Assembly: GCA_963738405.1 (NCBI GenBank)
Contig: CAVTWJ010000004.1
Coordinates: forward strand, 1 to 64,000
DNA from: a candidate division FCPU426 bacterium
GTDB lineage: Bacteria; Oederibacteriota; Muellerivitia; Muellerivitales; Muellerivitaceae
Reading direction: 5' to 3'
Length of the DNA stretch: 64,000 nucleotides
Part shown: piece by piece, positions 1,584 through 54,448 of the stretch
How positions within the stretch are numbered: the stretch's first letter is position 1
Layout of the letters: the number at the start of each line of letters is the position of its first letter
The notes under the pieces: generated by a model
Databases searched by the model: none
What the model was told of the DNA's origin: nothing
What the model saw: only the letters and a program-made list of their open reading frames with translations
Translations under genes and position numbers: made by a program

Positions 1584-1611
1584 TGTTCACGATGGGGAGC
1601 CAGATTGGACA
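1584..1611 (+). repeat. 28-bp palindromic site (TGTTCACGATG GGGAGC CAGATTGGACA)
   Basis: Variant of consensus TGTCCACGACG GGGACC CGTCGTGGACA. Confidence 0.8.
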
Positions 1612-1644
1612 ATAATTTTAGGATTTTTAACAAGGAGGTGAAAA

Positions 1645-2067
1645 ATGTTGCGTTCTATACCATTTCTTTTATTCGACGGTAACTGCGCGGAGGCGATGAC
1701 GTTCTACCGCTCCTGCCTAGGAGGAGAACTGACAATTCTTAAACTAGGGGATTCCCCCATGAAGGACCTTTTGCCCAAGGAGAAACACCAACGAACCATC
1801 AACGCCAACCTGAAAAGCGGGTACATTGAGATATCCGCCTCGGATTGGATGGCCTCGCCCACTTATGACCCTCATCCCGGCGATACCACCGCCATCTTCG
1901 TCATCGGCGAGGGATATGATGAGTTAAAAGCGGTTTTCGACAAACTTTCCAACGGCGCGGAAAAGGAAAAATACCAGGACTTGCATGACCTGCCCTTCGG
2001 GACCTATGGACAGTTTACGGACCGCTATGGGGTTCATTGGATTTTCAAAGGGGACAAGAAGGCTTAA
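1645..2067 (+). CDS. VOC/PhnB-like glyoxalase family protein
   Basis: PFLLFDGNCAEAMTFY…YGQFTDRYGVHW; AGGAGG RBS. Confidence 0.9.
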   Translation: MLRSIPFLLFDGNCAEAMTFYRSCLGGELTILKLGDSPMKDLLPKEKHQRTINANLKSGYIEISASDWMASPTYDPHPGDTTAIFVIGEGYDELKAVFDKLSNGAEKEKYQDLHDLPFGTYGQFTDRYGVHWIFKGDKKA

Positions 2068-2079
2068 TTCGTAGAAGGC

Positions 2080-2107
2080 TGTCCACGACGGGGACCCTTC
2101 GTGGACA
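2080..2107 (+). repeat. 28-bp palindromic site
   Basis: TGTCCACGACG GGGACC CTTCGTGGACA. Confidence 0.92.
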
Positions 2108-2222
2108 AAGCAAAATGGATAATGGCAGCCTGACCTCAATGTCCAATAACGATAAGGTAACTTTGCCAGCTGTGTAAGCCGAGTAGATAAAAAAAGTTGA
2201 TAGAATTCAATCGAGGCTGGAA

Positions 2223-3539
2223 ATGGAATCCCCGCAGACAAACGCGCATCCGAAAGCGCTCCTGTTTTCGGTCAGAACGCCCAAGGTAACTGATGCCGAA
2301 GCGATGGAATCGATGATCGAGCTCGAACGGCTGGTGACGACCTTGGGTTACGAGGTGACCGGAACTATGTCCCAGCGGCAACCCAGCACATCAGGGGTCA
2401 CGGTGGTGGGTGAGGGAAAACTGATGGAACTCGCCCAACTCACCGGCGGAAAGGGCCGCCGGGATAGGATCAAGGGGAACACCGAAGCGCCGCAACCGGC
2501 GCCAGTCCCGGCCTCGGCTCCCGAAGGACCCGCGATGGTCGCTTTTGACTGCGATTTGAGCCCGTCCCAGATACGGAACGTCGAAGAAGCTTTGGGAGTT
2601 CCGGTGCTTGATCGCACTGGCGTGATCATCGAAATCTTCAACCGGCACGCGAAGACCCGGGCGGCTCGTCTCCAGGTCGATATCGCGCGCCAAACTTATC
2701 AGGCTCCCCGTCTCAGGGATACGGGGGTAGGGAAGGAACGCCAGTCTGGCCGAGGATCCGGGGAAACAATCATCGAGACGGAAAAGCGCAAAGTCCGCGA
2801 CCGTCTGGCTGAGCTGAGGCACGAGTTAGAAGCGGTTCAAAGAGAAGAGGAGCATCGCCGGTTAAAACGCGCGGAACTGCTCGGCGCCGCGCTGGTGGGC
2901 TACACGAATGCCGGAAAATCATCCCTCATGCGGGCGCTGACCGGCAGCGACGTCCTGGTGGAGGACAAACTCTTCGCGACCTTGGATACGACCATACGCG
3001 CCCTACAACCAGAGACCCAGCCGAGAATCCTGATCACCGATACGGTGGGTTTTATCCACAAGCTTCCACACGATCTGGTGGCGTCCTTCCGCTCCACGCT
3101 GGATGAGGCCCGCGGCGCCGCCCTGCTGCTTTACGTGGTGGACGCCGCTGACCGCAACTTTCGTTCCCAGCTCGCGGTGGTTCGGGAAGTCTTGGGTGAG
3201 ATTGGCGCCGACAAAACCCCCTATCTTCTCGTTCTCAATAAGGCCGACTGCTTGAGCGAATGGCAGAAGCGGGTTCTCGGGGCGGAGTATCCAGACGCGG
3301 TTTTAACCTCGACCCGCAGTCCCGAGGACATGCGGGTCGTCAGTGAACGCATTATTCATTTTTTCGAGAAAGACATGATCGAAAAGGAGATTCTCGTTCC
3401 CTATAAAGCCCAAGGTGTCATCAGCGAAATGCGTTTGAATATGAAAATCTTGAAGGAGAGCTTTTCCGAAGATGGCGTTCTACTTCTTGTTCGCGCTCGT
3501 CCGATTGACCTTCAGCGCTTGAGTAAAATGATGAAGTAG
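2223..3539 (+). CDS. hflX: GTPase HflX
   Basis: GYTNAGKS, EDKLFATLD, DTVGFI and NKAD motifs. Confidence 0.95.
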   Translation: MESPQTNAHPKALLFSVRTPKVTDAEAMESMIELERLVTTLGYEVTGTMSQRQPSTSGVTVVGEGKLMELAQLTGGKGRRDRIKGNTEAPQPAPVPASAPEGPAMVAFDCDLSPSQIRNVEEALGVPVLDRTGVIIEIFNRHAKTRAARLQVDIARQTYQAPRLRDTGVGKERQSGRGSGETIIETEKRKVRDRLAELRHELEAVQREEEHRRLKRAELLGAALVGYTNAGKSSLMRALTGSDVLVEDKLFATLDTTIRALQPETQPRILITDTVGFIHKLPHDLVASFRSTLDEARGAALLLYVVDAADRNFRSQLAVVREVLGEIGADKTPYLLVLNKADCLSEWQKRVLGAEYPDAVLTSTRSPEDMRVVSERIIHFFEKDMIEKEILVPYKAQGVISEMRLNMKILKESFSEDGVLLLVRARPIDLQRLSKMMK

Positions 3540-3619
3540 TGTCCCGCGGTGTGTGCCGCCCTTCAATTTAAAATAAAGAGTTGGGGAGAGCGGACAATTG
3601 TATTGATCCGCTTTCGGTT

Positions 3620-3641
3620 GTAATCTTACTGGTAAGATTAC
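3620..3641. promoter_or_regulatory. palindromic operator of the TA operon
   Basis: GTAATCTTAC-tg-GTAAGATTAC immediately upstream of the antitoxin RBS. Confidence 0.65.
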
Positions 3642-3654
3642 TCGGAGGTAACCT

Positions 3655-3915
3655 ATGACCATCGCAACCACAAAGCTTTCCTCGAAGGGTCAAGTCGTTA
3701 TTCCTGAATCCATCCGCAAAAGTTTGCGCCTCAAAGAGGGGGATCAGTTTGTCGTGATGGGCCAGGGAGATTCGGTGATCTTCAAAGCCATTACCCCGCC
3801 TTCGTTGAGTCAACTTGACAGCCTGCTGGCCGCCGCGCGAAAGCAGGCGCGTGCTGCCGGATTACGCCCAGCAGACGTGAAGGCCGCCATTGCCCGCGTT
3901 CGGCGCGGTAAATGA
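3655..3915 (+). CDS. AbrB/MazE/SpoVT family antitoxin
   Basis: TKLSSKGQVVIPESIRKSLRLKEGD. Confidence 0.9.
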   Translation: MTIATTKLSSKGQVVIPESIRKSLRLKEGDQFVVMGQGDSVIFKAITPPSLSQLDSLLAAARKQARAAGLRPADVKAAIARVRRGK

Positions 3916-4313
3916 AACGAGTTGTTGTCATAGACACAAATGTTCTTGTCTCTGGTTTTTTCTGGATGGGGACCCCTTACCAAGTCCTCAAATCCTGGGA
4001 ACATGGTGATTTCAAGTTATTGGTGTCCCTGGAAATCCTCGAGGAATACCGCCGCGTTATGGAAGACTTTTCCAAGGGGCATCCTGGCGTTGAAGTTGAG
4101 CCCTTCCTGGAATTAATCAGATTGAATTGCGAAATGGTGAACGCTAAGCCGGTTCGAGGCATTTGCAAAGACCCCGATGATGATAAATTTATCGCGGCCG
4201 CCCTGGCGGGAAGAGCTGAATTCATCGTCTCGGGCGATAAGGCCCTGTTGGAGGTTGGAACCTACCAAAATATTAAAATCATGAATCCGTCCCGCTTTTT
4301 GAAAAACCTATAA
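3912..4313 (+). CDS. PIN-domain toxin (PIN_3 type)
   Basis: VIDTNVLVS, DPDDDKF and IVSGDKALL motifs; ATGA overlap with the antitoxin. Confidence 0.9.
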   Translation: MKRVVVIDTNVLVSGFFWMGTPYQVLKSWEHGDFKLLVSLEILEEYRRVMEDFSKGHPGVEVEPFLELIRLNCEMVNAKPVRGICKDPDDDKFIAAALAGRAEFIVSGDKALLEVGTYQNIKIMNPSRFLKNL

Positions 4314-4321
4314 GTTTCTGC

Positions 4322-4349
4322 TGTTCACGGCAGGTGCCCCGATTCCCAT
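4322..4349 (+). repeat. degenerate 28-bp site
   Basis: TGTTCACGGCA GGTGCC CCGATT…; starts 8 bp after the toxin stop. Confidence 0.4.
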
Positions 4350-4380
4350 AAGGCGTCGAACCCATCCATCTCACCCGTAA

Positions 4381-6771: not shown

Positions 6772-6793
6772 AAAGCCTCCCTTGGGAAATGGG

Positions 6794-15410: not shown

Positions 15411-15427
15411 TGTCCACGACGGGGGCC
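15411..15427 (+). repeat. half 28-bp site (left arm plus spacer)
   Basis: TGTCCACGACG GGGGCC; right arm absent. Confidence 0.7.
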
Positions 15428-15432
15428 CGGGC

Positions 15433-15870
15433 CTATTTGACTTTCATGCTTTCCAACAGGTCGTCATAGCCCTTTTTCAGGTTTTTCATCCCCTGGTCAA
15501 TCTCCGCCTTCAGCCGGTCCAAATCCTTTTCGGTGCTTTTTTTAACGGCCTTTAGTTGGGCATCCAAAACCTTTTCCTGGTGGTGCAAGCCGTGGATCTT
15601 AAGCCGAATGTCTTTATGGACGTCCTTTCCCAGATGGGCCGTGTTCTTGGAGAGCTTTTTTTCTTGAAGGCTGATTTGGGCCTTCAGGCCGTCCAAGTCC
15701 CTGCGGATTCTTTTTTCGTAATCCGCTTTCTTTTCCGCGACCAATTTCCCGGAGTCATTCATGGTTTTTTGGGCGTCCTGGGTTACGGTTTGGACCGCTT
15801 CTTCCGCTAAGACCGGGCCGCACCCCATCAATGCAAAACAACAAATAGCCAGAACCGTGAAAGTTTTCAT
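15433..15870 (-). CDS. exported coiled-coil protein
   Basis: Signal peptide followed by charged helical heptads; GGAGG RBS. Confidence 0.75.
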   Translation of the reverse strand: MKTFTVLAICCFALMGCGPVLAEEAVQTVTQDAQKTMNDSGKLVAEKKADYEKRIRRDLDGLKAQISLQEKKLSKNTAHLGKDVHKDIRLKIHGLHHQEKVLDAQLKAVKKSTEKDLDRLKAEIDQGMKNLKKGYDDLLESMKVK

Positions 15871-18604: not shown

Positions 18605-18632
18605 TGCCCATGACGGGGACCCGTATTGGAAA
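18605..18632 (+). repeat. degenerate 28-bp site
   Basis: TGCCCATGACG GGGACC CGTATTGGAAA. Confidence 0.7.
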
Positions 18633-18636
18633 ATAA

Positions 18637-18663
18637 ATATGTACGGTAATGTTCCGTACATAT
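18637..18663. promoter_or_regulatory. palindromic operator of the TA operon
   Basis: ATATGTACGG-n7-CCGTACATAT upstream of the antitoxin. Confidence 0.65.
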
Positions 18664-18690
18664 GTTATTCTTAACGTGGAGGTAACGGCC

Positions 18691-18972
18691 ATGGCGAAAG
18701 CCCTTAAAACAAAAGAAGAACGCATCGAACTGAGGGTAAGGCCTCAGGATAAGCGGCTATTGGAAAAAGCCGCCCAAGCGCAAGGATTGAGCCTGAGTTC
18801 CTATCTCGTGACGCGTTCCCTCCATGCGGCCCAGGAAGATGCGATCCCGGTTAAAACCTACCTTCCGCCTAAACGGGACGTGGACTTATTTCTAAGGCTT
18901 CTGGAAAACCCTCCCGTGCCTAACGAAAAGCTTAAGGCGGCGGCACGGCGTTACCAAAAAGAAATATCCTGA
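18691..18972 (+). CDS. DUF1778 (RHH) antitoxin
   Basis: KEERIELRV…K.LLEKAA…LSLSSY…LENPPVPNEKLK. Confidence 0.9.
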   Translation: MAKALKTKEERIELRVRPQDKRLLEKAAQAQGLSLSSYLVTRSLHAAQEDAIPVKTYLPPKRDVDLFLRLLENPPVPNEKLKAAARRYQKEIS

Positions 18973-18981
18973 TCGTCCGTT

Positions 18982-19497
18982 ATGACAGGCCAAAAATGGA
19001 AGTTTGTCCCTATCACGGAAAAACCTAACCTCGAAGCTTTTGACTGCGGCATTTCTGAACTCAATGATTACCTGAAAAAATACGCGGGCCAGAACCACCG
19101 CAAGGGGTTGGGAAGCACTTATGTCCTCATTCCGGCCGAAGGAGAACCGGTCGCGGCCGGTTATTACACCCTGAGCATGGCCCAGGTGGAATTACGCTCC
19201 CTGCCCGAATCCCACCGTAAAAACCTCCCGAAGTACCCTGTTCCCGCTGTCCGATTGGGCCGCCTTGCCGTTGACCGCCAATGGCAAGGAACTGGATTGG
19301 GGGAGATATTATTGATGGATGCCATCCGCCGGTCTGTTGCCGCCGTCCAATCGGTGGCCGCGAAATATATGATCGTCGATGCGAAAAACGAAAAGGCCGA
19401 GGAGTTTTATTTACGTTATGGGTTTCAACCCTTTGAAGGCGGTTCGTACTCATTGGTAGTGGCCATCGATACGTTAAAAGGACTTTTCGAGAAATGA
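18982..19497 (+). CDS. GNAT acetyltransferase toxin (AtaT/TacT-like)
   Basis: FDCG…LNDYL, GRLAVD…QGTGLG, VDAKNE…FY..YGF. Confidence 0.9.
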   Translation: MTGQKWKFVPITEKPNLEAFDCGISELNDYLKKYAGQNHRKGLGSTYVLIPAEGEPVAAGYYTLSMAQVELRSLPESHRKNLPKYPVPAVRLGRLAVDRQWQGTGLGEILLMDAIRRSVAAVQSVAAKYMIVDAKNEKAEEFYLRYGFQPFEGGSYSLVVAIDTLKGLFEK

Positions 19498-19513: not shown

Positions 19514-19530
19514 TGTTCGCGACGGGGAGC
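19514..19530 (+). repeat. half 28-bp site
   Basis: TGTTCGCGACG GGGAGC; 16 bp after the toxin stop. Confidence 0.65.
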
Positions 19531-19587
19531 ACCAAGCCCCCAGCTTGGCGCAGTGGGAATAGACAATAAAAACAAGGAGGTTCCAGG

Positions 19588-21385: not shown

Positions 21386-21413
21386 CCACCACGATGCGTC
21401 CCCTTCGGGGACA
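21386..21413 (-). repeat. 28-bp site in inverted orientation
   Basis: Reverse complement reads TGTCCCCGAAG GGGACG CATCGTGGTGG. Confidence 0.65.
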
Positions 21414-44222: not shown

Positions 44223-45573
44223 AAACCGCGTTTTCTTTTCTATCGCGCTTGGCGCCTTGTTCCTTCTGGTTTTGCTTGCGCAAGCCAAGGCGGATCACCC
44301 TCCTGCCAAAAGCGCGCTACTGCGGTATGCGGATAAGGCCGGACAGGCAACGGTTGCCCTCCTGCAGGGTCCGGACGGTAAGGTCTATCTGCCCTTGTTG
44401 GAGACGTCTAAATTCTACGGCATCGAGATTCAAAGGGATGACCTGGACGGAAAGATCACCCTCAAGAAGGGGGATGTGCAGGTCAGGCTGATGCTTTCCC
44501 AGCCCTTCTTTTTATTATTGGAAAATCAGGATTCCTATCCCATGGACCCGGCGGAAATGGTGGGCGGGGAGGTGGGACTACCGCCTGGATCGGCGGAGGA
44601 TGTCTTGAACGCCTTGTTGGACGTGGATGTCCGCTGGGATTGGGCGCAGCAAACACTGGTGGCGGGGGAGGTCACCACCCAGGACCTGCGCCAGGAAATC
44701 ATGAAAGCCAAGGAGTCAGGTCCCAATCCCACGCCCGCCCTTACCCCCAATGAGGCGCCTGCCCCGCTTATTATCAATCCAGTGGCGGCCGCCACACAAA
44801 CAGGCGACGAAGCGGAAACCGAAACCTCCGAAGCTCCGCCCCCGCCCCCCTCGGTTGTGGATGAGGACAGGGTTTCGGACAATAAAAAGTACCGCGTCCG
44901 GCGCATCATCATCGACCCGGGCCATGGTGGAAAGGATTACGGCGCAAGCGGTTATGACAACCGCTACTTCGAGAAACAGGCCACCCTGGATATCGCGAAA
45001 AAGGTCATGCAGATCCTCCAAAAAGACCGCAAATTGGAGGTTTATATGACCCGCAAGGCGGATTATTACATCACTTTGAAATACCGCACCGATTTCGCCA
45101 ATACCCGAAACGCGGACCTTTTTGTCTCCATCCACTGCAATTCCAACCCCAAATCCAAGGCTTCGGGAACCGAAACCTATGTCTATGGGGCCCGGGCCTC
45201 CAACCAAATGGCCGCCTACCAGGCTTCCCGAGAAAACGGGAGGGGGGATTATGTCGATTTCACACTCAATGACCTTCTTCATAACGCCTTTAGTTCCAGA
45301 AGCCATAAACTGGCGGAGGATGTGGAACGAAACATCCGCAAGAACCTGGGCCAGCAGATCAGAAGAATTTTGACCGCGCCCTTTTACGTCCTTTGCCGGG
45401 TGAACATGCCCTCGATCCTGATTGAGACCGCCTTTATCAGCAATCCGAAGGAAGAAAAGAAACTCAAGGATGAGGAATGGAAAAACAAAATTGCCCGGTC
45501 CATCGCTGACGGAATATTGTCCTACCGGGACCAAGTGGAGGAAAGTGTTGATACCCGACAAGCCGAGCGCTGA
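44203..45573 (+). CDS. N-acetylmuramoyl-L-alanine amidase (Amidase_3)
   Basis: IDPGHGG, SIHCN and ILIETAF motifs. Confidence 0.93.
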   Translation: MKLTSIKNRVFFSIALGALFLLVLLAQAKADHPPAKSALLRYADKAGQATVALLQGPDGKVYLPLLETSKFYGIEIQRDDLDGKITLKKGDVQVRLMLSQPFFLLLENQDSYPMDPAEMVGGEVGLPPGSAEDVLNALLDVDVRWDWAQQTLVAGEVTTQDLRQEIMKAKESGPNPTPALTPNEAPAPLIINPVAAATQTGDEAETETSEAPPPPPSVVDEDRVSDNKKYRVRRIIIDPGHGGKDYGASGYDNRYFEKQATLDIAKKVMQILQKDRKLEVYMTRKADYYITLKYRTDFANTRNADLFVSIHCNSNPKSKASGTETYVYGARASNQMAAYQASRENGRGDYVDFTLNDLLHNAFSSRSHKLAEDVERNIRKNLGQQIRRILTAPFYVLCRVNMPSILIETAFISNPKEEKKLKDEEWKNKIARSIADGILSYRDQVEESVDTRQAER

Positions 45574-46381
45574 AACCCTTCTTATCTCGCGGGGCGGGGT
45601 AAGCTTTATCACCTTTCCCGGATTAGGGGATTCAGCCCAATTAACCCAGGCCGTTTCCACACGAGTGGGCGGGGTGAGCCGTGGGAAGATGAAAAGCCTC
45701 AATTTGAGCTACAAGGTGGGGGATGATACGCTCCGGGTTGAGGAAAACCGGACCCTCCTCCTGAAGGCCCTGGGCATTCAAGGGGTTCCCGCAATGGTAA
45801 ACCAGGTGCATGGAGACGGAATCCGGCGGGTGGTGAAGGGAGACCGACTGCCCATGGACGGGGTGCTGGGGGAAGGCGATGCCCTGGTGAGCGATGTTCC
45901 CAGGGTTCCTTTGATGATCCTGGTGGCCGACTGTCTGCCGATACTTTTCCATGATCCCGTTCACCGAGCCATCGGATTAGCCCACGCCGGATGGCGGGGA
46001 ACGGTGAACCATATCGGGGCGAAGACCCTTTTGAGAATGCAGGAAGAATTCGGCACCCAACCCGCGGATGTCAAAGCGGCCCTGGGCCCCGCCATCGGAA
46101 GCTGCTGCTACGAGGTCGGACGGGACGTCGCGGATCGCTTTCAAGAGGTCTTTCCTTGGGCCGGGGAGGTTTTGGCCGGCACGGAAGCGGACAGATATAA
46201 GCTCAACCTGGAAGAAGCCAACGCCCGCCAGCTTTTGGAAGTCGGGGTTGTTCCCGAGAATCTATTCCGATCGGGTTTGTGCACAATCAAAAGAAATGAT
46301 TTGTTTTTTTCGTATCGGGCGGAAGCCACACCTGAGCGCCCCACGGGACGGGTTGGGGCCTTGATCATGCTGGCGGGTTAA
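45548..46381 (+). CDS. pgeF: peptidoglycan editing factor PgeF/YfiH
   Basis: NQVHG, ADCLP, HAGWRG, FFSYR; start approximate (GGAGG upstream). Confidence 0.92.
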   Translation: MIPDKPSAETLLISRGGVSFITFPGLGDSAQLTQAVSTRVGGVSRGKMKSLNLSYKVGDDTLRVEENRTLLLKALGIQGVPAMVNQVHGDGIRRVVKGDRLPMDGVLGEGDALVSDVPRVPLMILVADCLPILFHDPVHRAIGLAHAGWRGTVNHIGAKTLLRMQEEFGTQPADVKAALGPAIGSCCYEVGRDVADRFQEVFPWAGEVLAGTEADRYKLNLEEANARQLLEVGVVPENLFRSGLCTIKRNDLFFSYRAEATPERPTGRVGALIMLAG

Positions 46382-46392
46382 AGGAGACGACC

Positions 46393-46590
46393 ATGGGCTG
46401 GTGGAAAGATTTCTGGACGGGTCTCAAAAAGGGGAAGAAAGCCCGGGTTGATAAGCGGAAAGAACAAAGCCGCAGAAAAGGCGACCGCCGCTGGATGGGC
46501 CCGGAAGGTGAAAAACCCAGGGCCAAAAAGGAGCCCCGGCGCAAGAAGGAACGGCGCAAGAAGGCCCGGCGAAAACCCCCAAAGGCCTAA
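46393..46590 (+). CDS. 65-aa highly basic small protein
   Basis: AAGGAG RBS; Lys/Arg-rich. Confidence 0.55.
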   Translation: MGWWKDFWTGLKKGKKARVDKRKEQSRRKGDRRWMGPEGEKPRAKKEPRRKKERRKKARRKPPKA

Positions 46591-46642
46591 TAACCCCCCT
46601 CCCCGGCCAGACATAGCCTGTGATTGGGGTGGTTAACTATTT

Positions 46643-46838
46643 CTGTTAAACCGACCCTCAAAACTGTTAAACAAGTTCCGAAAACTGTTAAACAACACCA
46701 AAAAACTATTAAACTGCGCCAAAATTTCTGTTAAACAACCTCTAAAAACTGTTAAACTAGGCCTGATTTCTGTTAAACAGGCCTTTTTATTGGGTAAACA
46801 CCGTTCTTTTATCTGTTAAAATTTAATTTCTATTAAAC
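46643..46838 (+). repeat. ten phased CTGTTAAAC-like 9-mers with about 21-bp period
   Basis: Starts at 46643, 46664, 46685, 46706, 46728, 46749, 46770, 46791, 46813 and 46830. Confidence 0.92.
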
Positions 46839-46860
46839 AAACCCCCTTCCTGTTCATCGC

Positions 46861-48501
46861 ATGGAGGATATATTGGAAAAAAGCAACCTTAAGTCCCTGG
46901 CATGGCTGGATAAACTGTCCGCCTTCGCCGCTGAACGGGAAAAGAACCCCGACATCCCGCATGCCGAGCTGGCCAAGGCTCTGGGCCACGATAAGGCCAT
47001 GGTGTCTTTTCTGAGGTCCCTCAACAGTTGTTTTGATCCCGCCGCCGTGGAAAGGGTCCGGCAGGCCGCCCAAGGGCCCCACCCCTTTACCCTTTCCTTT
47101 AATAGCGCCTTGGAACTGGCCAAGCTGAACGGCAAGGTCCCCGACCTGCCGGGGGCGTTTCAGGACGCCCTGGAAGTGGTCCTTGCCCGCCATCTGGCCA
47201 AAAGGCATATCAAGAACCTGGTGGATTGGATTGCCAGCGGCAAACCGGCCAAGGATTTTGACCCTAAAAAGATCAAGGGAAATAAGCAGGATTCCGACGA
47301 ACCCGAAACCGACGAGGATGAGGGTGATGAGGAAGAACCCAAAGAGCAAACGGAAGATAAAAAGCAAAAGAAAGGGAAGGGTATCAGAAAGGCCCTTAAA
47401 CAGCTTCAAAAAGCAGGCGCTAAAGGCCTGTTTGTCGGCCTCAAATCCATGGCCGGTATGATCCACAGATACGTTCATGAAGCCGCCAAGACTACGGCGG
47501 GCTATTTTTGCCCCCTCCACTCACGTTCCAGCCGAAATCATGATTCCTCTACCAGGCCAAACCTCTTTAGGTTCCTGGGCCATTGGGGGCTCTACTGGTT
47601 TTGCGTCTTTTTTGCCTATAGCGGTATCGTCGGCCTCCTCAGTTACATCGGGCACTTTATCCCCTTCGTGGGCCCCTGGATCGACAGCGCCTGGGCGTTC
47701 CTGGTCCACCTGCTGATCCGCCTGCCCTTTTGGCTCTTGCGCCAGATATTTGCCAAGCCCTGGCTGGTTTTCATCCTTGGCGTGGCTTTGGTTTGGTGGA
47801 TTCACAAGGAATTCAAGGCCGGGTTATTGGCCACCCTTGTCGTCGCCGCCCTGTTGGCGGCGGGATGGATTTTTAGGGGAGTATGGGGGCCCTATCTGTC
47901 ATCGATTGTTTCAATTTCATCACCGAAGACCGTGGAAGTACCCGTCTCCACAAAGACCTCACAACCAGCCGTCCCAGCGGTTTCGGCGATCATTTCAAAG
48001 ATCGAGCCGAAGCTTACTGCAAAAAAGCCTAAAAAGCCCCTGTCTCCCGTAGCCTTGGCAAAGGGAGATAACTCGGGGGTCTTAGTTATTCCACCCGAGT
48101 CCCAGCCCAGGGTTCAGCAAGAATCGTTGTTCGTAAATGGCTTCATTGGTGATCTTTTCGGGCCCAGCTACCACGACCTTCAGGGTTGGATGGGGAATCT
48201 GCAAAGCGAAATCACGCCAGGCTATTGGGACCAGTTTGTTTACGAAAATTACCCGCCCGCCAAGATGCAGGAAATCCAAGACAAGAAATATTTGGTTTTC
48301 TTCAAACTCTCAGATCCCGTGAAATGCGTGAGGGCGGACGTGTTATTGGACGAGTTTCAGGTGGAAGGGGTGGTGACCACCAAAAGCGACCTGCATTATC
48401 AGGGGGAGGTGGTTTCCACCGTGCCCGTGACCGTAATTGTGGATGTGCGCCAGGGCCTGAAGGGCCTGGAAGTTTGCAAGGTTGATAGAGTCCGACCATG
48501 A
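46861..48501 (+). CDS. hypothetical protein: N-terminal HTH-like region, membrane block, C-terminal extracytoplasmic domain
   Basis: HAELAKALGHDKAMVS HTH-like segment; Trp/Phe-rich TM block around aa 235-345. Confidence 0.7.
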   Translation: MEDILEKSNLKSLAWLDKLSAFAAEREKNPDIPHAELAKALGHDKAMVSFLRSLNSCFDPAAVERVRQAAQGPHPFTLSFNSALELAKLNGKVPDLPGAFQDALEVVLARHLAKRHIKNLVDWIASGKPAKDFDPKKIKGNKQDSDEPETDEDEGDEEEPKEQTEDKKQKKGKGIRKALKQLQKAGAKGLFVGLKSMAGMIHRYVHEAAKTTAGYFCPLHSRSSRNHDSSTRPNLFRFLGHWGLYWFCVFFAYSGIVGLLSYIGHFIPFVGPWIDSAWAFLVHLLIRLPFWLLRQIFAKPWLVFILGVALVWWIHKEFKAGLLATLVVAALLAAGWIFRGVWGPYLSSIVSISSPKTVEVPVSTKTSQPAVPAVSAIISKIEPKLTAKKPKKPLSPVALAKGDNSGVLVIPPESQPRVQQESLFVNGFIGDLFGPSYHDLQGWMGNLQSEITPGYWDQFVYENYPPAKMQEIQDKKYLVFFKLSDPVKCVRADVLLDEFQVEGVVTTKSDLHYQGEVVSTVPVTVIVDVRQGLKGLEVCKVDRVRP

Positions 48502-48577
48502 AAGGCCGGAGTTAATTATTGGGCGGGGATATAATCCTAAAGTGAATCATATCTCCTGTGATTTTAGCTTAAGGTGT

Positions 48578-48605
48578 TGTCCACGATGGGGAGCCATCGT
48601 GGACA
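48578..48605 (+). repeat. 28-bp palindromic site
   Basis: TGTCCACGATG GGGAGC CATCGTGGACA. Confidence 0.93.
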
Positions 48606-48714
48606 AAGAAAAACGCTTGTAATACTGTTTTGATACGGTTGGCCTTGTCCTGTTTTTATGACAGAAATTGAGTCGGTGGCCAACTCTTTAGATTAATTAT
48701 TATGAGGCTGATGG

Positions 48715-49587
48715 ATGACCGAAGCACCTTTGGCGGAAAAAATTGAATTCGTCCGGTCCGAGGACCTTGCGGGCATTGAAATATTGCGGGCCGACAATAC
48801 CAAGCATTGTTTCCGGTGGTTTCACCAGACCTACTCCGTCAATACGCCTTTGAATTACCAAGCCCCCGATTACCACCAATTCAAGTATCGCGGGAAAAGC
48901 TTCACGGGGTTTCCGGGAGAGACCATGATGCTCGAACCCGGGGAAATCCACAGCGCCACTTACTTATCGAACCCGGTTACTTTTCGGGTCATCATGATTC
49001 CACCCGTAATCCTCGAACAATGCGCCTTGGAATTGGACGTCCGGGGTTCCAGGCCCCATTTAAAAACAGCGCTCTCGGACGATTCGGTTCTCTTTAAGGC
49101 CTTCCGGAATCTTCACGCCAGCATCGAAACGGATTGCACGGCCTTGGAACGTCAGTCCCGTTTTGTCTATTGCGTCAGGCATCTATTGAGGGCGGCGGCG
49201 GAAATAATTCCGAAACCCCCTCCCGCCGAAAGAAGTTTAAAGAAGGTTAAGAAGGCGGTGGAATTCTTGAAAACCCATTGGGCCGAAAATATTACACTCG
49301 ACCAACTCGTCAAGGTCGTGGGTCTTAACCGATTTTATCTCTCCCGGGTTTTCACCCGGGAAATGGGAATTCCTCCGCATGCCTTCCAGATTCAATTGCG
49401 GATTGCCCGGGTCCGGGAATTCTTGAAAATGGGCGTTCCTATTTCCGAAATCGCCCTCGCTGCGGGTTTTACCGACCAATCCCATATGGACCGCCATTTC
49501 AAGAAAATTACGGGGACAACGCCCGCCCGTTATGCCGGACTAAGATTGAAGACAAAGACCAGGGCAATAACGTCCTATAGTTTGTAA
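48715..49587 (+). CDS. AraC family regulator
   Basis: PGEIH cupin region; IALAAGFTDQSHMDRHFKK..G.TP..Y. Confidence 0.93.
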   Translation: MTEAPLAEKIEFVRSEDLAGIEILRADNTKHCFRWFHQTYSVNTPLNYQAPDYHQFKYRGKSFTGFPGETMMLEPGEIHSATYLSNPVTFRVIMIPPVILEQCALELDVRGSRPHLKTALSDDSVLFKAFRNLHASIETDCTALERQSRFVYCVRHLLRAAAEIIPKPPPAERSLKKVKKAVEFLKTHWAENITLDQLVKVVGLNRFYLSRVFTREMGIPPHAFQIQLRIARVREFLKMGVPISEIALAAGFTDQSHMDRHFKKITGTTPARYAGLRLKTKTRAITSYSL

Positions 49588-49649
49588 ATCCTTCTCCCTA
49601 GACTTCCAATGTCTCCAGTTAAAACGGAATTTTTGAGTGAGGGGTTATC

Positions 49650-52385
49650 ATGAAGAATCAGTCCTTGTTGATTACGATCGGGCTTTTGTTTTTTGCAGCT
49701 TGCTTCTATATTTCCTGCGGAAGCGGCAGTCCCACGGCGCCGGCCCCCACCCCCGTTCCCGTGCCCACCGATACCCCTTGCGGTTATCCGGGCAATACCT
49801 GCACAGTGACCTCCACCTTTACCTCGACCGATACGCCTACCTCGACCCATACGGCCACGACCACTTATTCGCCCACCCAAACCAATACCCCGACCCAAAC
49901 CTTCACCTGGACGGTCACGAAAACCCCGACGGACACCTTTACGTCAACTTCCACCTTTACGATAACGGATACACCGACAATAACGGATACACCCACCCAC
50001 ACCCACACCTACACCTTCACCTTCAGCCCCACGGAAACCAGGACTTCGACGGAAACCTTCACACCGTCCGATACCCCTACGATTACGGATACCCCCACCG
50101 TATCCAACACGCCCACCGTGACCAATACCCTGACCAGTACTACCACGCCCACTGTCACGAACACGGTGACCTGCACGAACACCCCGACCAACACTTCCCA
50201 ATATTCCTCTACCTATACACCCACGATCACTCGCACGGCCACGATCACCTTAAGTCCCACCAATACCTCCACGTCCACGCCAGTGGGTATTTTCGTCAGC
50301 GGTTCGGTGACCTACACGGGGGCGGGAACCGTCTCGTCGGCCAACCCCATCGTGATTATCGCCTCCAATCCCCTGGCAACGAACGGGATGCCCGAAACGG
50401 TTATCACCACAAACGGAGGCTCTTATTCTTTCGCGGTGACCGGTGGGAATAATTCCATCGTCTGCTGGTACTCGAACAAAGCGCCGCTCAATTGCCTGAC
50501 GAATGGCGGGGCCCCAGAGCAGGGGAATTACATGGGCTGGTACAACGGGGGCGCCCAGCCAGTCACGATCAATATCACTTCCAGTACTTCCAACATCAAC
50601 GTCACGATTGGTTCGGGCAGCGCCCTCCAGGGGGTTGCCGGGCCGGTGAGTTACCTGGGATTGAACAGCGTCGATAACAACCACCCGGTGATCGTGGAAC
50701 TCTTCAAGGACAGCGGCTACAGCACCCTGGACCAGTCGATGGGCCCGGGCGAGGAAGAGTTCAGCTGTGCCCATTCGACTTACAACTTCGCCTCCAGCAA
50801 CAACGGGTCGACCGAATACCTGCTGGCTTTCCAGGACAACGCGGGTACGGGCCGCGTGAACGCCGCCAGTCAGGTTCCCGGCGGGGACCCGATGGTTTTG
50901 GCCGGATCCGTGGTGATTGGTACCTCAACGACCAAGAATATCGCTTTTCCCACTTCCACGCCGACCATGACGGTCACCTCCACCCCGATCCCCGCCCCCT
51001 ACGTCTTCAAGGGAACGATCCATTACACCGGCGCAAAAAGCACTGCGGGCCAATACCTATTGATGATGGCCACCACCTGCATCAGCTGCGGCGGCAACGA
51101 TATGGTCACTTGGTCCACCCCGGGAACCTCGAGCGCGGTTTCCTATACCCTCAACCTGCCCTCCACCGGCAGTTACGTGGTCATGGGCATGTTGTCCAAT
51201 GATCCGGTCATGAACGGGCCGCCGCCGGTGGGCGCGCCTTACGGATTCTACGGAACAGGCACTGTTTGTTTGGGAGGAACACCCACGACCCTGGCCGTGA
51301 ACGGGCCTACCACGCAGACTGCCAACATGTCTTTTGGGGACAGCTGCGAACTGAATGGTGTTTCGGGGACCATCAGCTACACCGGCGCGGGCTCAGTGGG
51401 CAGTAATGGTAACTCGCTGTATGTGACGGCTTATACGGATTCAAGCTACTCGACTCAGATTTCGGGACCCGGAAACAACTCCGTGACGGTGAATGGGGGC
51501 ACTTATAACGTGATCAACACCGGCGGCGCCCCCACTACCGTCTATCTCCAGGCTTATTACGGGTCCGACAATAACAACGCCCCGGCAACCTGTGACGCGG
51601 TGACCAATTTAGGCCCGGTGGCCTTCAACACCACCACGACCACCAAAAATATCACGCTTTCCGACGCCTTCCTCTACAACTGCACGAACACCCTCTCGGG
51701 CACCGTCAATTGGACAGGGGCCGGCACGGTCAACACGTCCGATCCCATCGTCGTGCATGCCGTCCTTTGCCCCAGCGGGGATTGCAACAACCAAACGAAC
51801 TACTCTTGCGCAGTGACCCAAAACGGCGGGAACTATTTCGTGGGTTTTCCCGCAGCGGGATCCGTTTACGTTTCTGAGGAATACGTGGCCACGGGAAGGA
51901 TTTGGAACAATTGGGATTACAACATCGGAAGCTACGCCGAAAATGCCGATGGAACTTGTTCCATCGAGACCGGCAATAATGGAAACCCCGTCATCGTCAG
52001 CGGAGCCGCCGTTTCAAACCTGAGTTTCGGTTCCAGTTGTGGACAACTCCAGGGTTATACCGGAACCGTGACCTATAACGGTTCCAAGGGCGCCCCGACT
52101 TGCAATGGAAACCCCGGACGCCAAATTTGGGTCTCGGCCACGTATGGAAACAGTAAAAACGAGTTTTCCTATTGGGATACTAGCGTATGCAATAACGGTG
52201 ACACCTATAAGATCATCTATGGAACAACGAGCGCGAGTCTATATTTGAGGGTCTGGTTTGATGACCAGGGTACGGGTGACCACCAGCCGCAGACCGGCGA
52301 GTCTGGGACCGTAGTGGGTCCCTACGTTACGAGCACCAACCCAACCTCTATCAACATTTCCTTTGATGATTCCCAAACCTGGTAA
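49650..52385 (+). CDS. large surface lipoprotein with Thr/Pro stalk and repeated Cys-containing beta domains
   Basis: Lipobox-like YISC; TPT repeats; recurring SG(T/S)V.YTG.G.V units. Confidence 0.85.
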   Translation: MKNQSLLITIGLLFFAACFYISCGSGSPTAPAPTPVPVPTDTPCGYPGNTCTVTSTFTSTDTPTSTHTATTTYSPTQTNTPTQTFTWTVTKTPTDTFTSTSTFTITDTPTITDTPTHTHTYTFTFSPTETRTSTETFTPSDTPTITDTPTVSNTPTVTNTLTSTTTPTVTNTVTCTNTPTNTSQYSSTYTPTITRTATITLSPTNTSTSTPVGIFVSGSVTYTGAGTVSSANPIVIIASNPLATNGMPETVITTNGGSYSFAVTGGNNSIVCWYSNKAPLNCLTNGGAPEQGNYMGWYNGGAQPVTINITSSTSNINVTIGSGSALQGVAGPVSYLGLNSVDNNHPVIVELFKDSGYSTLDQSMGPGEEEFSCAHSTYNFASSNNGSTEYLLAFQDNAGTGRVNAASQVPGGDPMVLAGSVVIGTSTTKNIAFPTSTPTMTVTSTPIPAPYVFKGTIHYTGAKSTAGQYLLMMATTCISCGGNDMVTWSTPGTSSAVSYTLNLPSTGSYVVMGMLSNDPVMNGPPPVGAPYGFYGTGTVCLGGTPTTLAVNGPTTQTANMSFGDSCELNGVSGTISYTGAGSVGSNGNSLYVTAYTDSSYSTQISGPGNNSVTVNGGTYNVINTGGAPTTVYLQAYYGSDNNNAPATCDAVTNLGPVAFNTTTTTKNITLSDAFLYNCTNTLSGTVNWTGAGTVNTSDPIVVHAVLCPSGDCNNQTNYSCAVTQNGGNYFVGFPAAGSVYVSEEYVATGRIWNNWDYNIGSYAENADGTCSIETGNNGNPVIVSGAAVSNLSFGSSCGQLQGYTGTVTYNGSKGAPTCNGNPGRQIWVSATYGNSKNEFSYWDTSVCNNGDTYKIIYGTTSASLYLRVWFDDQGTGDHQPQTGESGTVVGPYVTSTNPTSINISFDDSQTW

Positions 52386-52396
52386 AAGCTTTTGGC

Positions 52397-52434
52397 AAAA
52401 AGGCCCGTCCCTTCATTGGGACGGGCCTTTTTTT
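52397..52434. terminator. bidirectional intrinsic terminator
   Basis: AAAAAGGCCCGTCCC-ttcatt-GGGACGGGCCTTTTTTT. Confidence 0.9.
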
Positions 52435-52690
52435 ATTTGGAGTGGGCGTCAAGGAACCAGTCGCCGGAAAATATCATGGTTGTATATAGGTGATATACTG
52501 GCCGCATTGAAAAACCCGGCAGTTGAAACGGGATATTAACGGCAGGGCGTTATTGAACGGGATGGTTATCGATGGAACCTGAAGTCCAATAATAAAAAAA
52601 CCGGGTCTGGTCCCACGCTCTCCAGCGTGGAACAGGGCTCAATTCACCGCAGAATTGAGCAGGGATTAACCATTATTAGTACGAGTTAGG

Positions 52691-52718
52691 TGTTCACGAT
52701 GGGGACCCGTCGTGGACA
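52691..52718 (+). repeat. 28-bp palindromic site
   Basis: TGTTCACGATG GGGACC CGTCGTGGACA. Confidence 0.93.
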
Positions 52719-52758
52719 GGTAACATGGATTGGGAAACATTGAAAGAGGATGTGAAGT

Positions 52759-53163
52759 TTGGCAAAAAATGAAAAAATCCAAATATTATTATTCCCTTTT
52801 CTGTTCCTTGGGTTAATGATTATTTTTCCATATATAAGTTTTGGATTTAATAAATGGCTTGGGAGAAATTTAGGGAATTTTTTATTTTTTCTACCGCAAT
52901 ATGTATTTCCATATGACGGGTATTTCAGAAGTGGCCCGTTTGATGAAACTGCCCACTTAAGTCTTCATCCGCTTGGTTTGCCAGGATGGATTGCATCGTT
53001 GATTCATTGGACGATTGTCATTTTTATTTATTATTGGCTTACTCGAAAATTATCCTTTGGAAAATCACTTCTAATGTTTTGCTTTTTGGCTATTTCATCA
53101 TTAGTAATTGTCTATTTTTCATTGGGGGTTTTTGGATGGAATTTCAGCATTGATGGACCATAA
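52759..53163 (+). CDS. AT-rich membrane protein (cassette 1)
   Basis: Three hydrophobic segments; fills the interval between two sites. Confidence 0.7.
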   Translation: MAKNEKIQILLFPFLFLGLMIIFPYISFGFNKWLGRNLGNFLFFLPQYVFPYDGYFRSGPFDETAHLSLHPLGLPGWIASLIHWTIVIFIYYWLTRKLSFGKSLLMFCFLAISSLVIVYFSLGVFGWNFSIDGP

Positions 53164-53177
53164 AAAAGGAATTCTCT

Positions 53178-53205
53178 TGTCCACGACGGGGACCCGTCGT
53201 GGACA
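53178..53205 (+). repeat. 28-bp palindromic site (consensus)
   Basis: TGTCCACGACG GGGACC CGTCGTGGACA. Confidence 0.95.
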
Positions 53206-53248
53206 AAGAAAAAAGGCGTAAAGTGTTATCGGCAATAGGAGATCGAAA

Positions 53249-53584
53249 ATGGATCGCAAAATAATCGCCGAAGTTATATTCGCATTTTTAGGAGTATGGA
53301 TGATCGCCCTCCCTTCATTCTTTTTAAAGTTCCTCGCAAAGGGGGCACAGTTTAATTATGAAAATTTAAAATCAAATTTAGATAGGATTAAAAGGGAAGG
53401 GCCGGCAAATCTGAACGAAAAATTAGCGACGAAATTTGGTCCCAACATCTTTCAAAAAATCTCGATGAATAAGGATGTTTATAAACCCCCGACGGAAACA
53501 CAAAAGTGGTTAATGAGATCATTGGGGATATTATTCGTTTGCATATCTCTTGGCGTTTTATTCAATCTGATTGGGGTTAGATGA
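53249..53584 (+). CDS. AT-rich two-TM protein (cassette 2)
   Basis: AGGAG RBS; hydrophobic termini. Confidence 0.75.
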   Translation: MDRKIIAEVIFAFLGVWMIALPSFFLKFLAKGAQFNYENLKSNLDRIKREGPANLNEKLATKFGPNIFQKISMNKDVYKPPTETQKWLMRSLGILFVCISLGVLFNLIGVR

Positions 53585-53648
53585 AACATTGTTAATTTTT
53601 CTCTCCAGTTTCTTAACCGATTTGAGGACCGTTTGGTTGAAGCTTGTT

Positions 53649-53676
53649 TGTCCACGACGGGGACCCATCGTGGACA
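53649..53676 (+). repeat. 28-bp palindromic site
   Basis: TGTCCACGACG GGGACC CATCGTGGACA. Confidence 0.95.
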
Positions 53677-53733
53677 GAAAAATAAAGTGTAAGTATTTCA
53701 TTTGGACGGTATTACGGGAAAAAGGATTAGAAT

Positions 53734-54267
53734 TTGGAAACTAAAACGGAAATAAATCCAAACGAATTTAGAACACTTTACCGTCCCCGTTTTGCTGATT
53801 GGCTCATTGCTTGTCTTTTTTTCTTAACTTTTGGTTTGGGACTTCCATCTATGTTGGTTGAAAAAAGTTTGGATGTTTGGGGAAAGAACATTTTATCTTT
53901 GGATTCGATTGAAAGGTTTTTTGGGTGCGTTGTAGTAATCGGAATGGAAATAATTTTATTGAAAGAATGTTTAAAATCTTGGCTTTCTGAAGTTAGTGTT
54001 AATTCTATGAGACTAAAATTAAAAATTCTTTCTTTTGAAAAAATAATTGAATGGAAAACTCTTCATTCTATTTCTCTTTCGCCCAATAGCTGGGGAACAG
54101 TTGATTTGTATTTGTTTTTTCCAAATAAAAAGAAAATTAGGTTTTGGTCGGCCTTTGGTCCTGCAAGTAGATTTATCTACCAAGGTATAAAAGAATTCAG
54201 ACCTGATCTGATTGATGAACTGAAAAAGCAGGGGAAAATGCATGAGTATAAAGGTGTATTTATTTAA
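53734..54267 (+). CDS. AT-rich membrane protein, possibly two TM plus a PH-like domain (cassette 3)
   Basis: Two TM segments then KIIEWKTLHSI. Confidence 0.7.
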   Translation: METKTEINPNEFRTLYRPRFADWLIACLFFLTFGLGLPSMLVEKSLDVWGKNILSLDSIERFFGCVVVIGMEIILLKECLKSWLSEVSVNSMRLKLKILSFEKIIEWKTLHSISLSPNSWGTVDLYLFFPNKKKIRFWSAFGPASRFIYQGIKEFRPDLIDELKKQGKMHEYKGVFI

Positions 54268-54282
54268 ACCAGATACTTAACC

Positions 54283-54310
54283 TGTCCACGACGGGGACCC
54301 GTCGTGGACA
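54283..54310 (+). repeat. 28-bp palindromic site (consensus)
   Basis: Exact match to 53178-53205. Confidence 0.95.
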
Positions 54311-54420
54311 GTCAGTACCACTGACTGTCTTATTCGAAAATGTTTCCCCGGAACTTTCTAGCTTTCTCAAAAAATTTTAGGGGAATGATAAACCTGTACT
54401 TACCTGGTAAAGTTACCCCC

Positions 54421-54448
54421 TGTCCGCAAAAGGAACCCGTTGTGAACA
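54421..54448 (+). repeat. degenerate 28-bp site
   Basis: TGTCCGCAAAA GGAACC CGTTGTGAACA followed by the usual AAGAAAA. Confidence 0.7.

Follow-up and report, generated by a model that had tools for sequence, protein, structure and literature searches.

A probable integron-like gene-cassette system on 28-bp crossover sites in an uncultured bacterial family, with a short serine recombinase as candidate enzyme

The stretch of DNA analyzed here (64,000 nucleotides, C4:1-64000, referred to as the window) belongs to the draft genome of a candidate division FCPU426 bacterium, which comprises 3.18 Mb in 23 contigs and is 90.7% complete. It carries copies of a 28-bp palindromic site with the consensus TGTCCACGACGGGGACCCGTCGTGGACA, which close small accessory genes arranged in arrays. 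These arrays very probably represent an undescribed integron-like gene-cassette system with 28-bp crossover sites. An earlier, sequence-only reading of the window had proposed such a system, and it is supported by modules that have no counterpart at syntenic positions in relatives, by cassettes that recur in different contexts and by identity that breaks at the sites. The full explanation, in which a short serine recombinase is the most likely enzyme of the cassette system, is assigned a probability of about 0.58. Literature searches covering serine recombinases, gene cassettes and truncated forms of large serine recombinases yielded no description of such a system.

A cassette consists of a single gene or of a toxin-antitoxin pair, in many cases has a promoter of its own, and is closed by a site; cassettes are lined up head to tail and co-oriented in arrays behind ordinary genes or inside islands. 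According to the proposed mechanism, recombination of one site with another exchanges DNA in the central GGGA (positions 12-15, around the dyad GA), so that every site is a hybrid of the upstream and the downstream cassette. Two direct sites would release the cassette between them as a circle with one site, which could re-enter at any other site; this re-entry would explain identical cassettes in different places and genera. The sites, the arrays, the hybrid structure, the transfer of cassettes and the linkage of a recombinase gene to sites are documented by the sequences; we infer that the candidate enzyme cuts at GA and that cassettes pass through such circles. The cut would be made by a serine recombinase of about 277 aa with a YVRVSS-containing N-terminal catalytic domain and a recombinase domain, two domains which on their own would need about 13 bp per half-site. 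With neither zinc ribbon nor coiled coil, the enzyme would treat all sites alike, so that both excision and insertion would be possible.

Sites, hybrid structure and cassette exchange

The repeat is real and far above chance expectation. Scanning the whole genome at up to seven mismatches yielded 56 sites, whereas the reversed pattern gave none and five shuffled controls gave 0-2 matches; within the window, six matches at up to three mismatches were found versus none in 100 shuffles. The sites are 400-1000 bp apart and point in the same direction within each array. Examples are C6 with eight sites within 4.7 kb, C23 with two arrays of five and seven sites, C11 and C12 with four sites each, and the window itself with five sites between 52.7 and 54.4 kb, while 11 of the 23 contigs are devoid of sites (at up to seven mismatches). 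Thus, the copies are not spread evenly among core genes but form clustered arrays with accessory content and gene turnover. From the 13 positions that had been listed in the window, eight full sites and two half-sites remain, the latter (15411 and 19514) consisting of left arm and core alone, as had been recognized for single-armed copies. The copy at 54421 is degenerate, the one at 4322 doubtful, and the one at 21386 probably an unrelated hairpin. The latter was the only copy described as inverted; all convincing window sites lie on the plus strand. Likewise, the dcw cluster is free of sites, none being found between 21413 and 48578 in the scan at up to seven mismatches. The statement that sites follow soon after stop codons fits 50 of the 56 genome sites, which lie -15 to 150 bp downstream of a co-oriented open reading frame (ORF) of at least 40 aa, yet this criterion is lenient and applies to 959 of 2000 random positions, too.

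A pool of 444 distinct sites was compiled from this genome, from loci of G001, G004, G008 and G021, and from several metagenome-assembled genomes (MAGs). Conservation in this pool amounts to 74-98% in the left arm (positions 1-11) and in the core (12-18) but to only 52-70% in the inner part of the right arm (19-22); the outer part (23-28) is conserved again, and conservation stops at the edges of the 28 bp. Variants of the right arm include CGGATTGGACA and AAAAGGAACA. The site can also be read as a 13-2-13 palindrome with the central GA at the dyad as its sole asymmetry, which suits the serine recombinase class. The target dinucleotide of TnpX and TndX is GA. A variant palindrome, TGTCCGCGAGGGGGTCCCCGGCGCGGACA, was observed at the proximal end of an array on C23 (G000, about 157620-157650, minus strand). 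It features an inverted core and the same change in both arms (A to G, T to C) and may be a diverged site type.

A scan of relatives, which had been suggested as a check, revealed the site at up to two mismatches in 18 of 24 other genomes of the family, belonging to at least 12 genera. The control pattern was found nowhere, and none of 16 genomes from other families of the order or phylum had the site at this threshold. Scanning one genome per species yielded 41 stretches with the site, all of them MAGs; two are titled as other phyla, namely a "Mycobacteriales" contig, the match of which has unlike outer arms, and a "Firestonebacteria" MAG. As far as searched, the cassette system appears confined to one uncultured bacterial family.

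The structure of the sites was resolved by a flank-linkage test, in which pairs of sites sharing 30 bp of flank on one side (at least 85% identity) and differing on the other (at most 50%) were compared and weighted by group. In 21 groups sharing the left flank only, 5.8 left-arm differences were observed compared with 31.7 expected from random pairs, the respective values for the right arm being 48.3 and 60.4. In 15 groups sharing the right flank only (introns set aside), the right arm showed 15.0 differences compared with 43.1 expected and the left arm 11.7 compared with 22.6. The diverged right arm AAAAGGAACA occurs with one right flank and six different left flanks (G001, G021), and CGTCCACGACG, TGTCCACTACG and an A at position 11 are each linked to their own left flank. 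Position 18 follows the right flank in the triple L075/L116/L119, and position 16 is not linked to the left flank in L042/L075. The linkage of these rare variants at positions 11, 16 and 18 to flanks therefore places the junction in positions 12-15. Intron insertions served as an internal control: the left arm is unlinked to the intron (4.4 differences observed, 4.5 expected), and right-arm differences amount to 4.0 compared with 8.6 expected, in three groups only. Judged from sequence, the sites are hybrid joints with left arm and core from the upstream and the right arm from the downstream cassette. The early notion of hybrid recombination products is hereby borne out, with a central crossover and with arms that are inherited together with their own flank.

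Another observation of the first reading, the reassortment of arm variants, stands as such. Position 10 assorts independently of position 19 (chi-square p = 0.26), the same is true for positions 8 and 21 (p = 0.98; n = 374), and about a third of the sites are mispaired at 7-10/19-22. Nevertheless, the common changes C10→T and G19→A affect the two mirror CpG positions of the palindrome, and the free assortment of GACG/GATG and CGTC/CATC variants could be explained by recurrent mutation alone. The flank-linkage test represents the stronger evidence for hybrid sites.

Cassettes were found in different surroundings within and between genomes. One cassette of 891 bp is identical in three contexts of a single MAG (L039/L040, L044, L057), and a fourth copy borders on a contig edge (L056); the identical stretch begins with base 1 of the upstream site and, in comparison to L039, stops with the downstream site. 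The VapBC cassette C6:5310-6109 is 99.6% identical over all 800 bp to L081:15185-15984 of G004, a genome of a different genus with core proteins 50-75% identical to those of this genome. The neighbors differ on both sides, and the identity stops inside the downstream site. Furthermore, the window's TacA-GNAT cassette, extending from 18633 to about 19528, shares 89-90% DNA identity with cassettes of G004 (L081) and of a MAG (L045), and a MazEF cassette is present in two copies in this genome (86% identity), with the homology stopping at the 3' site. The HflX-like gene at 2223..3539 has a second, 94% identical copy on C11 between two sites and is also located between sites in G001 and G004.

Gene turnover became evident from the comparison with five relatives, three of the same genus (G001-G003) and two of other genera (G004, G008). 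Genes matching 45422-46381 and 54480-54803 (107 aa) are 0.3-1.2 kb apart in all five, with a small basic ORF after the former directly preceding the 107-aa gene, and no site occurs in the 12-20 kb examined around this locus in any of them. As the two genes are near-adjacent in relatives, the intervening 8.1 kb of the window are therefore an island; from about 10 bp beyond 54448 onward, the sequence is again homologous to that of relatives. On C23, a DUF520 gene and a gene for a 354-aa protein are separated by seven sites in an array of 5 kb; the two genes are direct neighbors in all five relatives (16 bp apart in G003). On C16, a single cassette between two full sites follows hemB and is missing from all five. 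Accordingly, arrays are absent at all three syntenic loci tested in every relative, in line with the presence/absence pattern postulated for site-bounded genes. In G003, G001, G008 and G004, the 14-20 kb examined upstream of the dcw cluster showed none of the modules present at 13.5-19.5 kb of the window.

The cargo is of the kind typical of cassette stores. A Pfam scan of 44 ORFs preceding sites revealed 12 toxins of toxin-antitoxin systems (8 PIN, 2 DUF5615, 2 MazF/PemK) and one glyoxalase-like protein; 24 had no Pfam family, and the remaining seven belong to other families, including core genes at array borders (hemB, peptidase S51) and the HflX-like GTPase. Antitoxin genes are located ahead of the toxin genes in the cassettes. 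The GC content of array genes is 0.31-0.50, compared with about 0.52 for the genome.

Candidate enzyme and competing explanations

In search of the enzyme, 499 ORFs of at least 150 aa from array loci of five genomes and of MAGs were clustered, and recurrent clusters were scanned. The clusters recurring beside arrays comprised group II intron reverse transcriptases (17), NHL/beta-propeller proteins (15), IS110 transposases (8), ParB-like/transmembrane (TM) proteins (8), Sel1 proteins, and a serine recombinase with Resolvase and Recombinase domains. In the array loci examined, the serine recombinase gene is convergent to the cassettes and has its 3' end about 15 bp from the last site of the array. 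A family-wide search detected full-length copies (275-282 aa, 73-100% identity to the query from G001) in G001, G044, G024, G004 and G020, and stumps elsewhere. All five full-length genes, representing four genera, end 8-36 bp from a convergent site. The gene in the metagenome locus L149 (92% identical), the only assessable close relative, likewise ends at a convergent site, and none of 14 loci with relatives at up to 67% identity matches the site pattern. Among the 444 pooled sites, 11 are followed by the 3' end or a stump of the recombinase gene. In addition, the MAG with the identical 891-bp copies has the recombinase gene at a terminal site (L065), and the short clade was found in none of the six site-less genomes of the family.

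The protein features an N-terminal catalytic domain of the resolvase type (PF00239, E = 5e-22), with YVRVSS invariant in the five full-length genes and in an alignment of 30 sequences, and a recombinase domain (PF07508), just after which the genes stop; the five full-length genes have AVLYVRVSSKEQ in common. The zinc ribbon PF13408 was not found in the 19 closest clusters (275-283 aa). With 19 clusters at 68% identity or more among 5.8 billion proteins, the short form is set apart from the next matches, which reach at most 58% and often include a zinc ribbon. Ratios of nonsynonymous to synonymous substitution (dN/dS) of 0.08-0.16, with dS near saturation and seven of ten pairs computable, indicate that the short recombinase is under purifying selection. 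The best structural matches of an AlphaFold model (pLDDT 76) are large serine integrases, over catalytic and recombinase domains, the Foldseek matches being 4bqq (phiC31 N-terminal and recombinase domain) and 4kis (LI integrase), whereas a sequence search of solved structures gave a match to the N-terminal domain only (3guv). In large serine recombinases, the recombinase domain is located near the center of the half-site and the zinc ribbon further out, with 25 bp in total; polarity arises from the 2-bp central dinucleotide, and the coiled coil provides site selectivity and one-way action (PMC3783163). With somewhat better than even odds, the serine recombinase of about 277 aa is the enzyme that moves the cassettes. 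An ORF of 82 aa is located just upstream of its gene in G001 and G024 (L127:981-1229, L129:1080-1328), possibly encoding a cofactor or regulator.

No Resolvase-domain gene was found in this genome. Still, a stretch of 110 bp directly behind site 54283 can be aligned by eye, at the DNA level, to the 3' part of the recombinase gene in L065, L093, L094 and L098 and shares with it the hairpin GTCAGTAC-ACTGAC and the stretch GGAATGAT...GTACTT...GGTAAAG. DNA identity to L035 amounts to 82% over 105 bp; the tblastn match is weak (37% over 46 aa, E = 0.13). According to this remnant (54311-54420), the island once ended in a recombinase gene. As an intact recombinase is missing here, its arrays probably stay immobile as long as no enzyme acts on them in trans.

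Several findings weigh against this explanation. The VapBC pair shares the whole upstream site, including a rare G at position 9 of the left arm, despite different upstream neighbors; the central-crossover model does not predict this and leaves it to a chance of roughly one in ten. Homology between the two HflX copies of this genome begins 50-90 bp past the upstream site and stops before the downstream site. Thus, the assumption that breakpoints coincide with sites is correct for the 891-bp, VapBC and MazEF cassettes, which end at or in sites, but the HflX duplication does not break there. The empty loci of relatives contain no site, and therefore site-by-site recombination does not account for how an array first arrives; the two sites that flank the cassette behind hemB are complete and not hybrids with host sequence. 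Regarding the enzyme, a relative with 67% identity is a normal full-length protein which continues into a CxxC motif and has a zinc ribbon. Therefore, the short form could be a gene that was cut by the array and kept for another reason. Moreover, only G001, G004, G020 and G024 among the 18 site-bearing family genomes have a full copy, and G021 has a stump; no intact short recombinase was found in the site-rich G008 (51 matches), G018, G003 and this genome, these being draft MAGs in which arrays often lie at contig ends.

Some of these points would also agree with sites that are hairpins 3' of accessory genes, similar to terminators or to repetitive extragenic palindromic (REP) sequences, and shuffled by homologous recombination, the serine recombinase gene being only a neighbor or a truncation victim. 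The sites are near-perfect palindromes right after stop codons, arrays persist in genomes without the recombinase, and the empty loci are site-less. Furthermore, the group II introns inserted directly after sites are of a hairpin-targeting kind (PMC1702495). This explanation is nonetheless unlikely. The arms do not covary, the mispairing at 7-10/19-22 affects a third of the sites, and the inner right arm is far less conserved than the left. The tails are A-rich and lack a T tail, none of the five sites in 48400-54600 being terminator-like, compared with the true terminator at 52397-52432; with no compensatory change in the arms either, an intrinsic terminator was rejected. The copies are clustered instead of dispersed, the junctions are central and not anywhere along the 28 bp, and the same 28 bp are kept across at least 12 genera. 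In addition, repeats of 28 bp are barely long enough for RecA-type exchange. A REP system driven by a REP-associated tyrosine transposase (RAYT) was dismissed as well, as the three RAYT-like Y1_Tnp genes are not near the clustered sites. These Y1 (HUH) genes with a C-terminal helix-turn-helix (HTH) encode about 320 aa (C19:21015-21992, C12:141067-142020, C12:146971-147918) and are flanked by a different repeat, AAAAGGGGTCAGGCC, which is unrelated to the site.

The cassette system could also be operated by a tyrosine recombinase encoded elsewhere, Xer-like or of an unrecognized family, with exchange across the 6-bp spacer of an 11-6-11 site, as the sequence-only reading had assumed. The site fits this architecture, the junction at positions 12-15 falls inside such a spacer, and many site-rich genomes are without the serine recombinase. 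In listing the recombinases of this genome, tyrosine recombinases were indeed found on C12, C9, C1 and C22, besides the three Y1 genes, which are unlinked to sites. IntI (TIGR02249) scored over the cut-off in none of 31 family genomes, this one included, which, together with a site of 28 bp without attC cores, rejects an IntI/attC integron. The Xer-like gene C12:40126-41163 has a palindromic dif-like site of its own at its 5' end (ATTTCATATAACTATAATTATATGAAAT, 28 bp, 11-6-11, C12:40112-40139), a layout known from single-recombinase Xer systems with XerH or XerS. This host site has no arm in common with the cassette site, so that the host Xer is an unlikely enzyme. As had been stated, the cassette site differs from canonical dif and lacks attC cores; its outer bases TGTCCAC/GTGGACA are one base short of RYYYAAC/GTTRRRY. 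According to their translations, the genes on C9 and C1 resemble common integrases of the phage type, and the trio on C22 resembles a high-GC element close to the end of its contig. The recurrent array-side families of the 499 ORFs (five genomes and MAG loci) included no tyrosine recombinase, in a survey without family-wide profiling of each such gene. The assignment to a tyrosine recombinase is not supported and appears quite unlikely. Nor is the candidate enzyme simply encoded elsewhere, as genomes retaining the serine recombinase have it at the distal end of an array, and the window contains a remnant of it. The C22 trio (C22:214500-217700) consists of three adjacent genes and has the appearance of a recombinase-trio element or of foreign DNA.

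It is very unlikely that each cassette is a small transposable unit with the arms as terminal inverted repeats, moved by a transposase that prefers insertion into the core of an existing site. Formally, this yields the same hybrid-site pattern, arrays appear at formerly site-less loci, and IS110-family genes begin about 70 bp from a site in at least three of eight copies near arrays. However, this genome has no IS110 gene, and no other transposase recurs with its arrays. IS110 copies were observed in G001 and MAG loci only, a transposase is not encoded in most cassettes, and no target duplication is visible beyond the shared core. IS110 as the driver was thus rejected, the copies beside sites in G001 and a MAG looking like invaders.

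Features of the window and elements near the arrays

The features of the window are compiled in Table 1. Its first 4.3 kb are an array at the contig edge with a gene without family, a glyoxalase-like, an HflX-like and a MazE-PIN module. The island begins with phased repeats and a ParB-like/TM gene, followed by site 48578, an AraC gene, a gene for a 911-aa protein and the main array, in which three small membrane proteins without family match are encoded (52.7-54.3 kb).

Table 1. Sites, cassettes and further features of the window in order of position.
Feature	Position	Strand	Remarks
110-aa ORF, no assigned family	1243-1575		precedes site 1584
Site	1584..1611	+	left arm and core good; right arm variant AGATTGGACA; 7 mismatches
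Glyoxalase-like cassette	1645-2067		precedes site 2080
Site	2080..2107	+	1 mismatch
HflX-like GTPase gene	2223..3539	+	cassette-like
MazE/AbrB-type antitoxin and PIN_3 toxin cassette	3655..4313	+	
Doubtful, strongly decayed site	4322..4349	+	>10 mismatches; end of first array, meets convergent GH15 gene
Half-site	15411..15438	+	perfect left arm and core GGGGGCC, right arm missing; after methyltransferase gene 14636-15385
Gene pair (80 aa and 271 aa), no assigned family	17522-18576		precedes site 18605
Site	18605..18632	+	5 mismatches
TacA antitoxin and GNAT toxin cassette	18649..19497	+	
Half-site	19514..19541	+	closes TacAT cassette; left arm and core GGGGAGC, right arm missing
Probable non-member	21386..21413	-	7-mismatch match resting on GTCCCC-TTCG-GGGGAC hairpin; flanking genes also neighbors in G003
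Island, about 8.1 kb	46382..54448	+	missing at same place in 5/5 relatives
21-bp-phased repeats, CTGTTAAAC core	46660..46779	+	island head, directly upstream of ParB-like/TM gene
ParB-like/TM family member	46861..48501	+	island neighbor
Site	48578..48605	+	core GGGAGC; arms both GATG/CATC type
Intrinsic terminator of 911-aa gene	52397..52432	+	15-bp stem and T run
Site	52691..52718	+	opens main array
Cassette 1	52759..53163	+	134-aa hydrophobic protein, no Pfam family; regional mean GC 0.41
Site	53178..53205	+	perfect consensus
Cassette 2	53249..53584	+	111-aa protein, no Pfam family
Site	53649..53676	+	1 mismatch
Cassette 3	53734..54267	+	177-aa membrane protein, no Pfam family
Site	54283..54310	+	last full one of the array; perfect consensus
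3'-end remnant of short serine recombinase gene	54311..54420	-	includes GTCAGTACCACTGAC hairpin, found 3' of that gene elsewhere
Degenerate site-like sequence	54421..54448	+	right edge of island, end of recombinase remnant

The phased repeats at the head of the island resemble a centromere or iteron array. The ParB-like/TM family comprises at least 15 paralogs, e.g., C6:8847-10916, C23:8191-10269 and C14:60067-61683. Full members combine a ParB_N/HTH N-terminus with a transmembrane middle part and, at the C-terminus, a conserved domain of roughly 140 aa (FGPSYHD...YENYPPAK...), and several paralogs are located co-oriented at array heads in this genome. As recombinase of the system, the family was rejected: G004 has only one weak match near 11 array regions, and its arrays follow ordinary core genes. 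Because the family is sparse near the arrays of G004, it is treated as an island neighbor of this genus.

Group II introns, either ORF-less or with reverse transcriptase/maturase, are inserted exactly after site position 28 at L045:1526-2340 and further loci (L038, L052, L058, L060, L062, L067, L089-L094, L117, L120). They belong to three sequence families with eight, seven and four copies, one of which was confirmed by Rfam (RF02003 and RF00029), and their placement matches the behavior described for class IIC introns targeting hairpins and attC sites. A soil-metagenome contig likewise carries the 3' end of cassette 2 and its site, followed by a group II intron in place of cassette 3. Among sequencing runs, only two from soil matched about 6% of the sampled words; their short contigs share mainly the site, with unlike flanks, and showed neither joints nor circles at a coverage too thin to bear on excision. 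The IS110-family genes near arrays (DEDD_Tnp_IS110 and Transposase_20 domains) are located at L054:1594-2670, L092:11804-12880, L100:2058-3134 and five more positions. Elements of the IS1111 type target attC sites, and by analogy the IS110-family elements may target the 28-bp site.

Relation to known systems and significance

The closest resemblance exists to integrons and to clusters of attC sites lacking an integrase (CALINs; PMC4889954). In both cases, arrays are co-oriented and consist of mostly single-gene cassettes, each closed by a palindromic recombination site and exchanged between arrays, and the content is rich in toxin-antitoxin pairs and small proteins without known family. As with CALINs, arrays can occur with no enzyme gene close by. 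As with integrons, the sites are invaded by group II introns and accompanied by IS110-family elements; an association of group IIC-attC introns with integron attC sites is reported (PMC3001079). Differences concern first of all the absence of IntI from the 31 genomes. Furthermore, the 28-bp palindrome is of a double-strand type without RYYYAAC/GTTRRRY cores or a long imperfect hairpin, whereas attC sites are imperfect palindromes of 57-141 bp with R''/L''/L'/R' boxes and these cores. The crossover is at the center and not at one end, many arrays per genome are scattered over unrelated loci, where neither an attI nor a shared promoter is apparent, and a serine recombinase, encoded in convergent orientation at the distal array end, is the candidate enzyme. 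Thus, the system works like an integron or CALIN but falls short of both defining tests, IntI and attC.

Staphylococcal cassette chromosome elements (SCC/SCCmec) employ Ccr large serine recombinases, which are full-length enzymes, and consist of few large units at one chromosomal site (the end of rlmH). They share with the present system a serine recombinase, tandem units parted by repeated attachment sequences, and recombinase-less units presumably moved in trans, but differ from its dozens of 0.4-1-kb cassettes at many loci and its enzyme without zinc ribbon and coiled coil. Compared with large serine recombinases in general, the candidate has the catalytic domain with YVRVSS and the recombinase domain and lacks the zinc ribbon and the embedded coiled coil. 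Xer/dif and the pdif modules of Acinetobacter are similar in that a 28-bp site readable as 11-6-11 bounds modules. However, pdif sites alternate in orientation around modules, while all sites are direct within an array here, and the host dif-like site differs in sequence and adjoins its own Xer gene. The near-identical arms of the cassette site suggest one protein species. TnpX and TndX of Tn4451 and Tn5397 are full-length enzymes which move their own transposon and form no arrays of foreign cassettes. Still, they resemble the proposed enzyme by a crossover at a 2-bp core and by one enzyme for excision as a circle and for insertion, and TnpX alone excises and inserts its element at a 2-bp target (PMC3158075).

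A more specific proposal, for which the odds are put slightly below even, is that of a serine-recombinase counterpart of the integron, in which the loss of the directionality module (zinc ribbon and coiled coil) from a large serine recombinase would have resulted in a bidirectional exchanger on minimal 13-2-13 sites and in a multi-locus cassette pool shared between genera. If this were true, a bidirectional two-domain derivative of large serine recombinases acting on 28-bp sites would be of interest to recombinase engineers, and the model that the coiled coil sets directionality would become directly testable. Integrons are the textbook device of gene capture, defined by a single family of tyrosine recombinases and a single type of folded site. 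Another cassette system of independent construction, distinguished by simple 28-bp duplex-type sites, many arrays per genome and probably a serine recombinase, would mark cassette stores as a convergent solution and not as a peculiarity of IntI. For the uncultured soil lineages concerned, the site itself can serve as a flag for accessory genes and toxin-antitoxin cargo.

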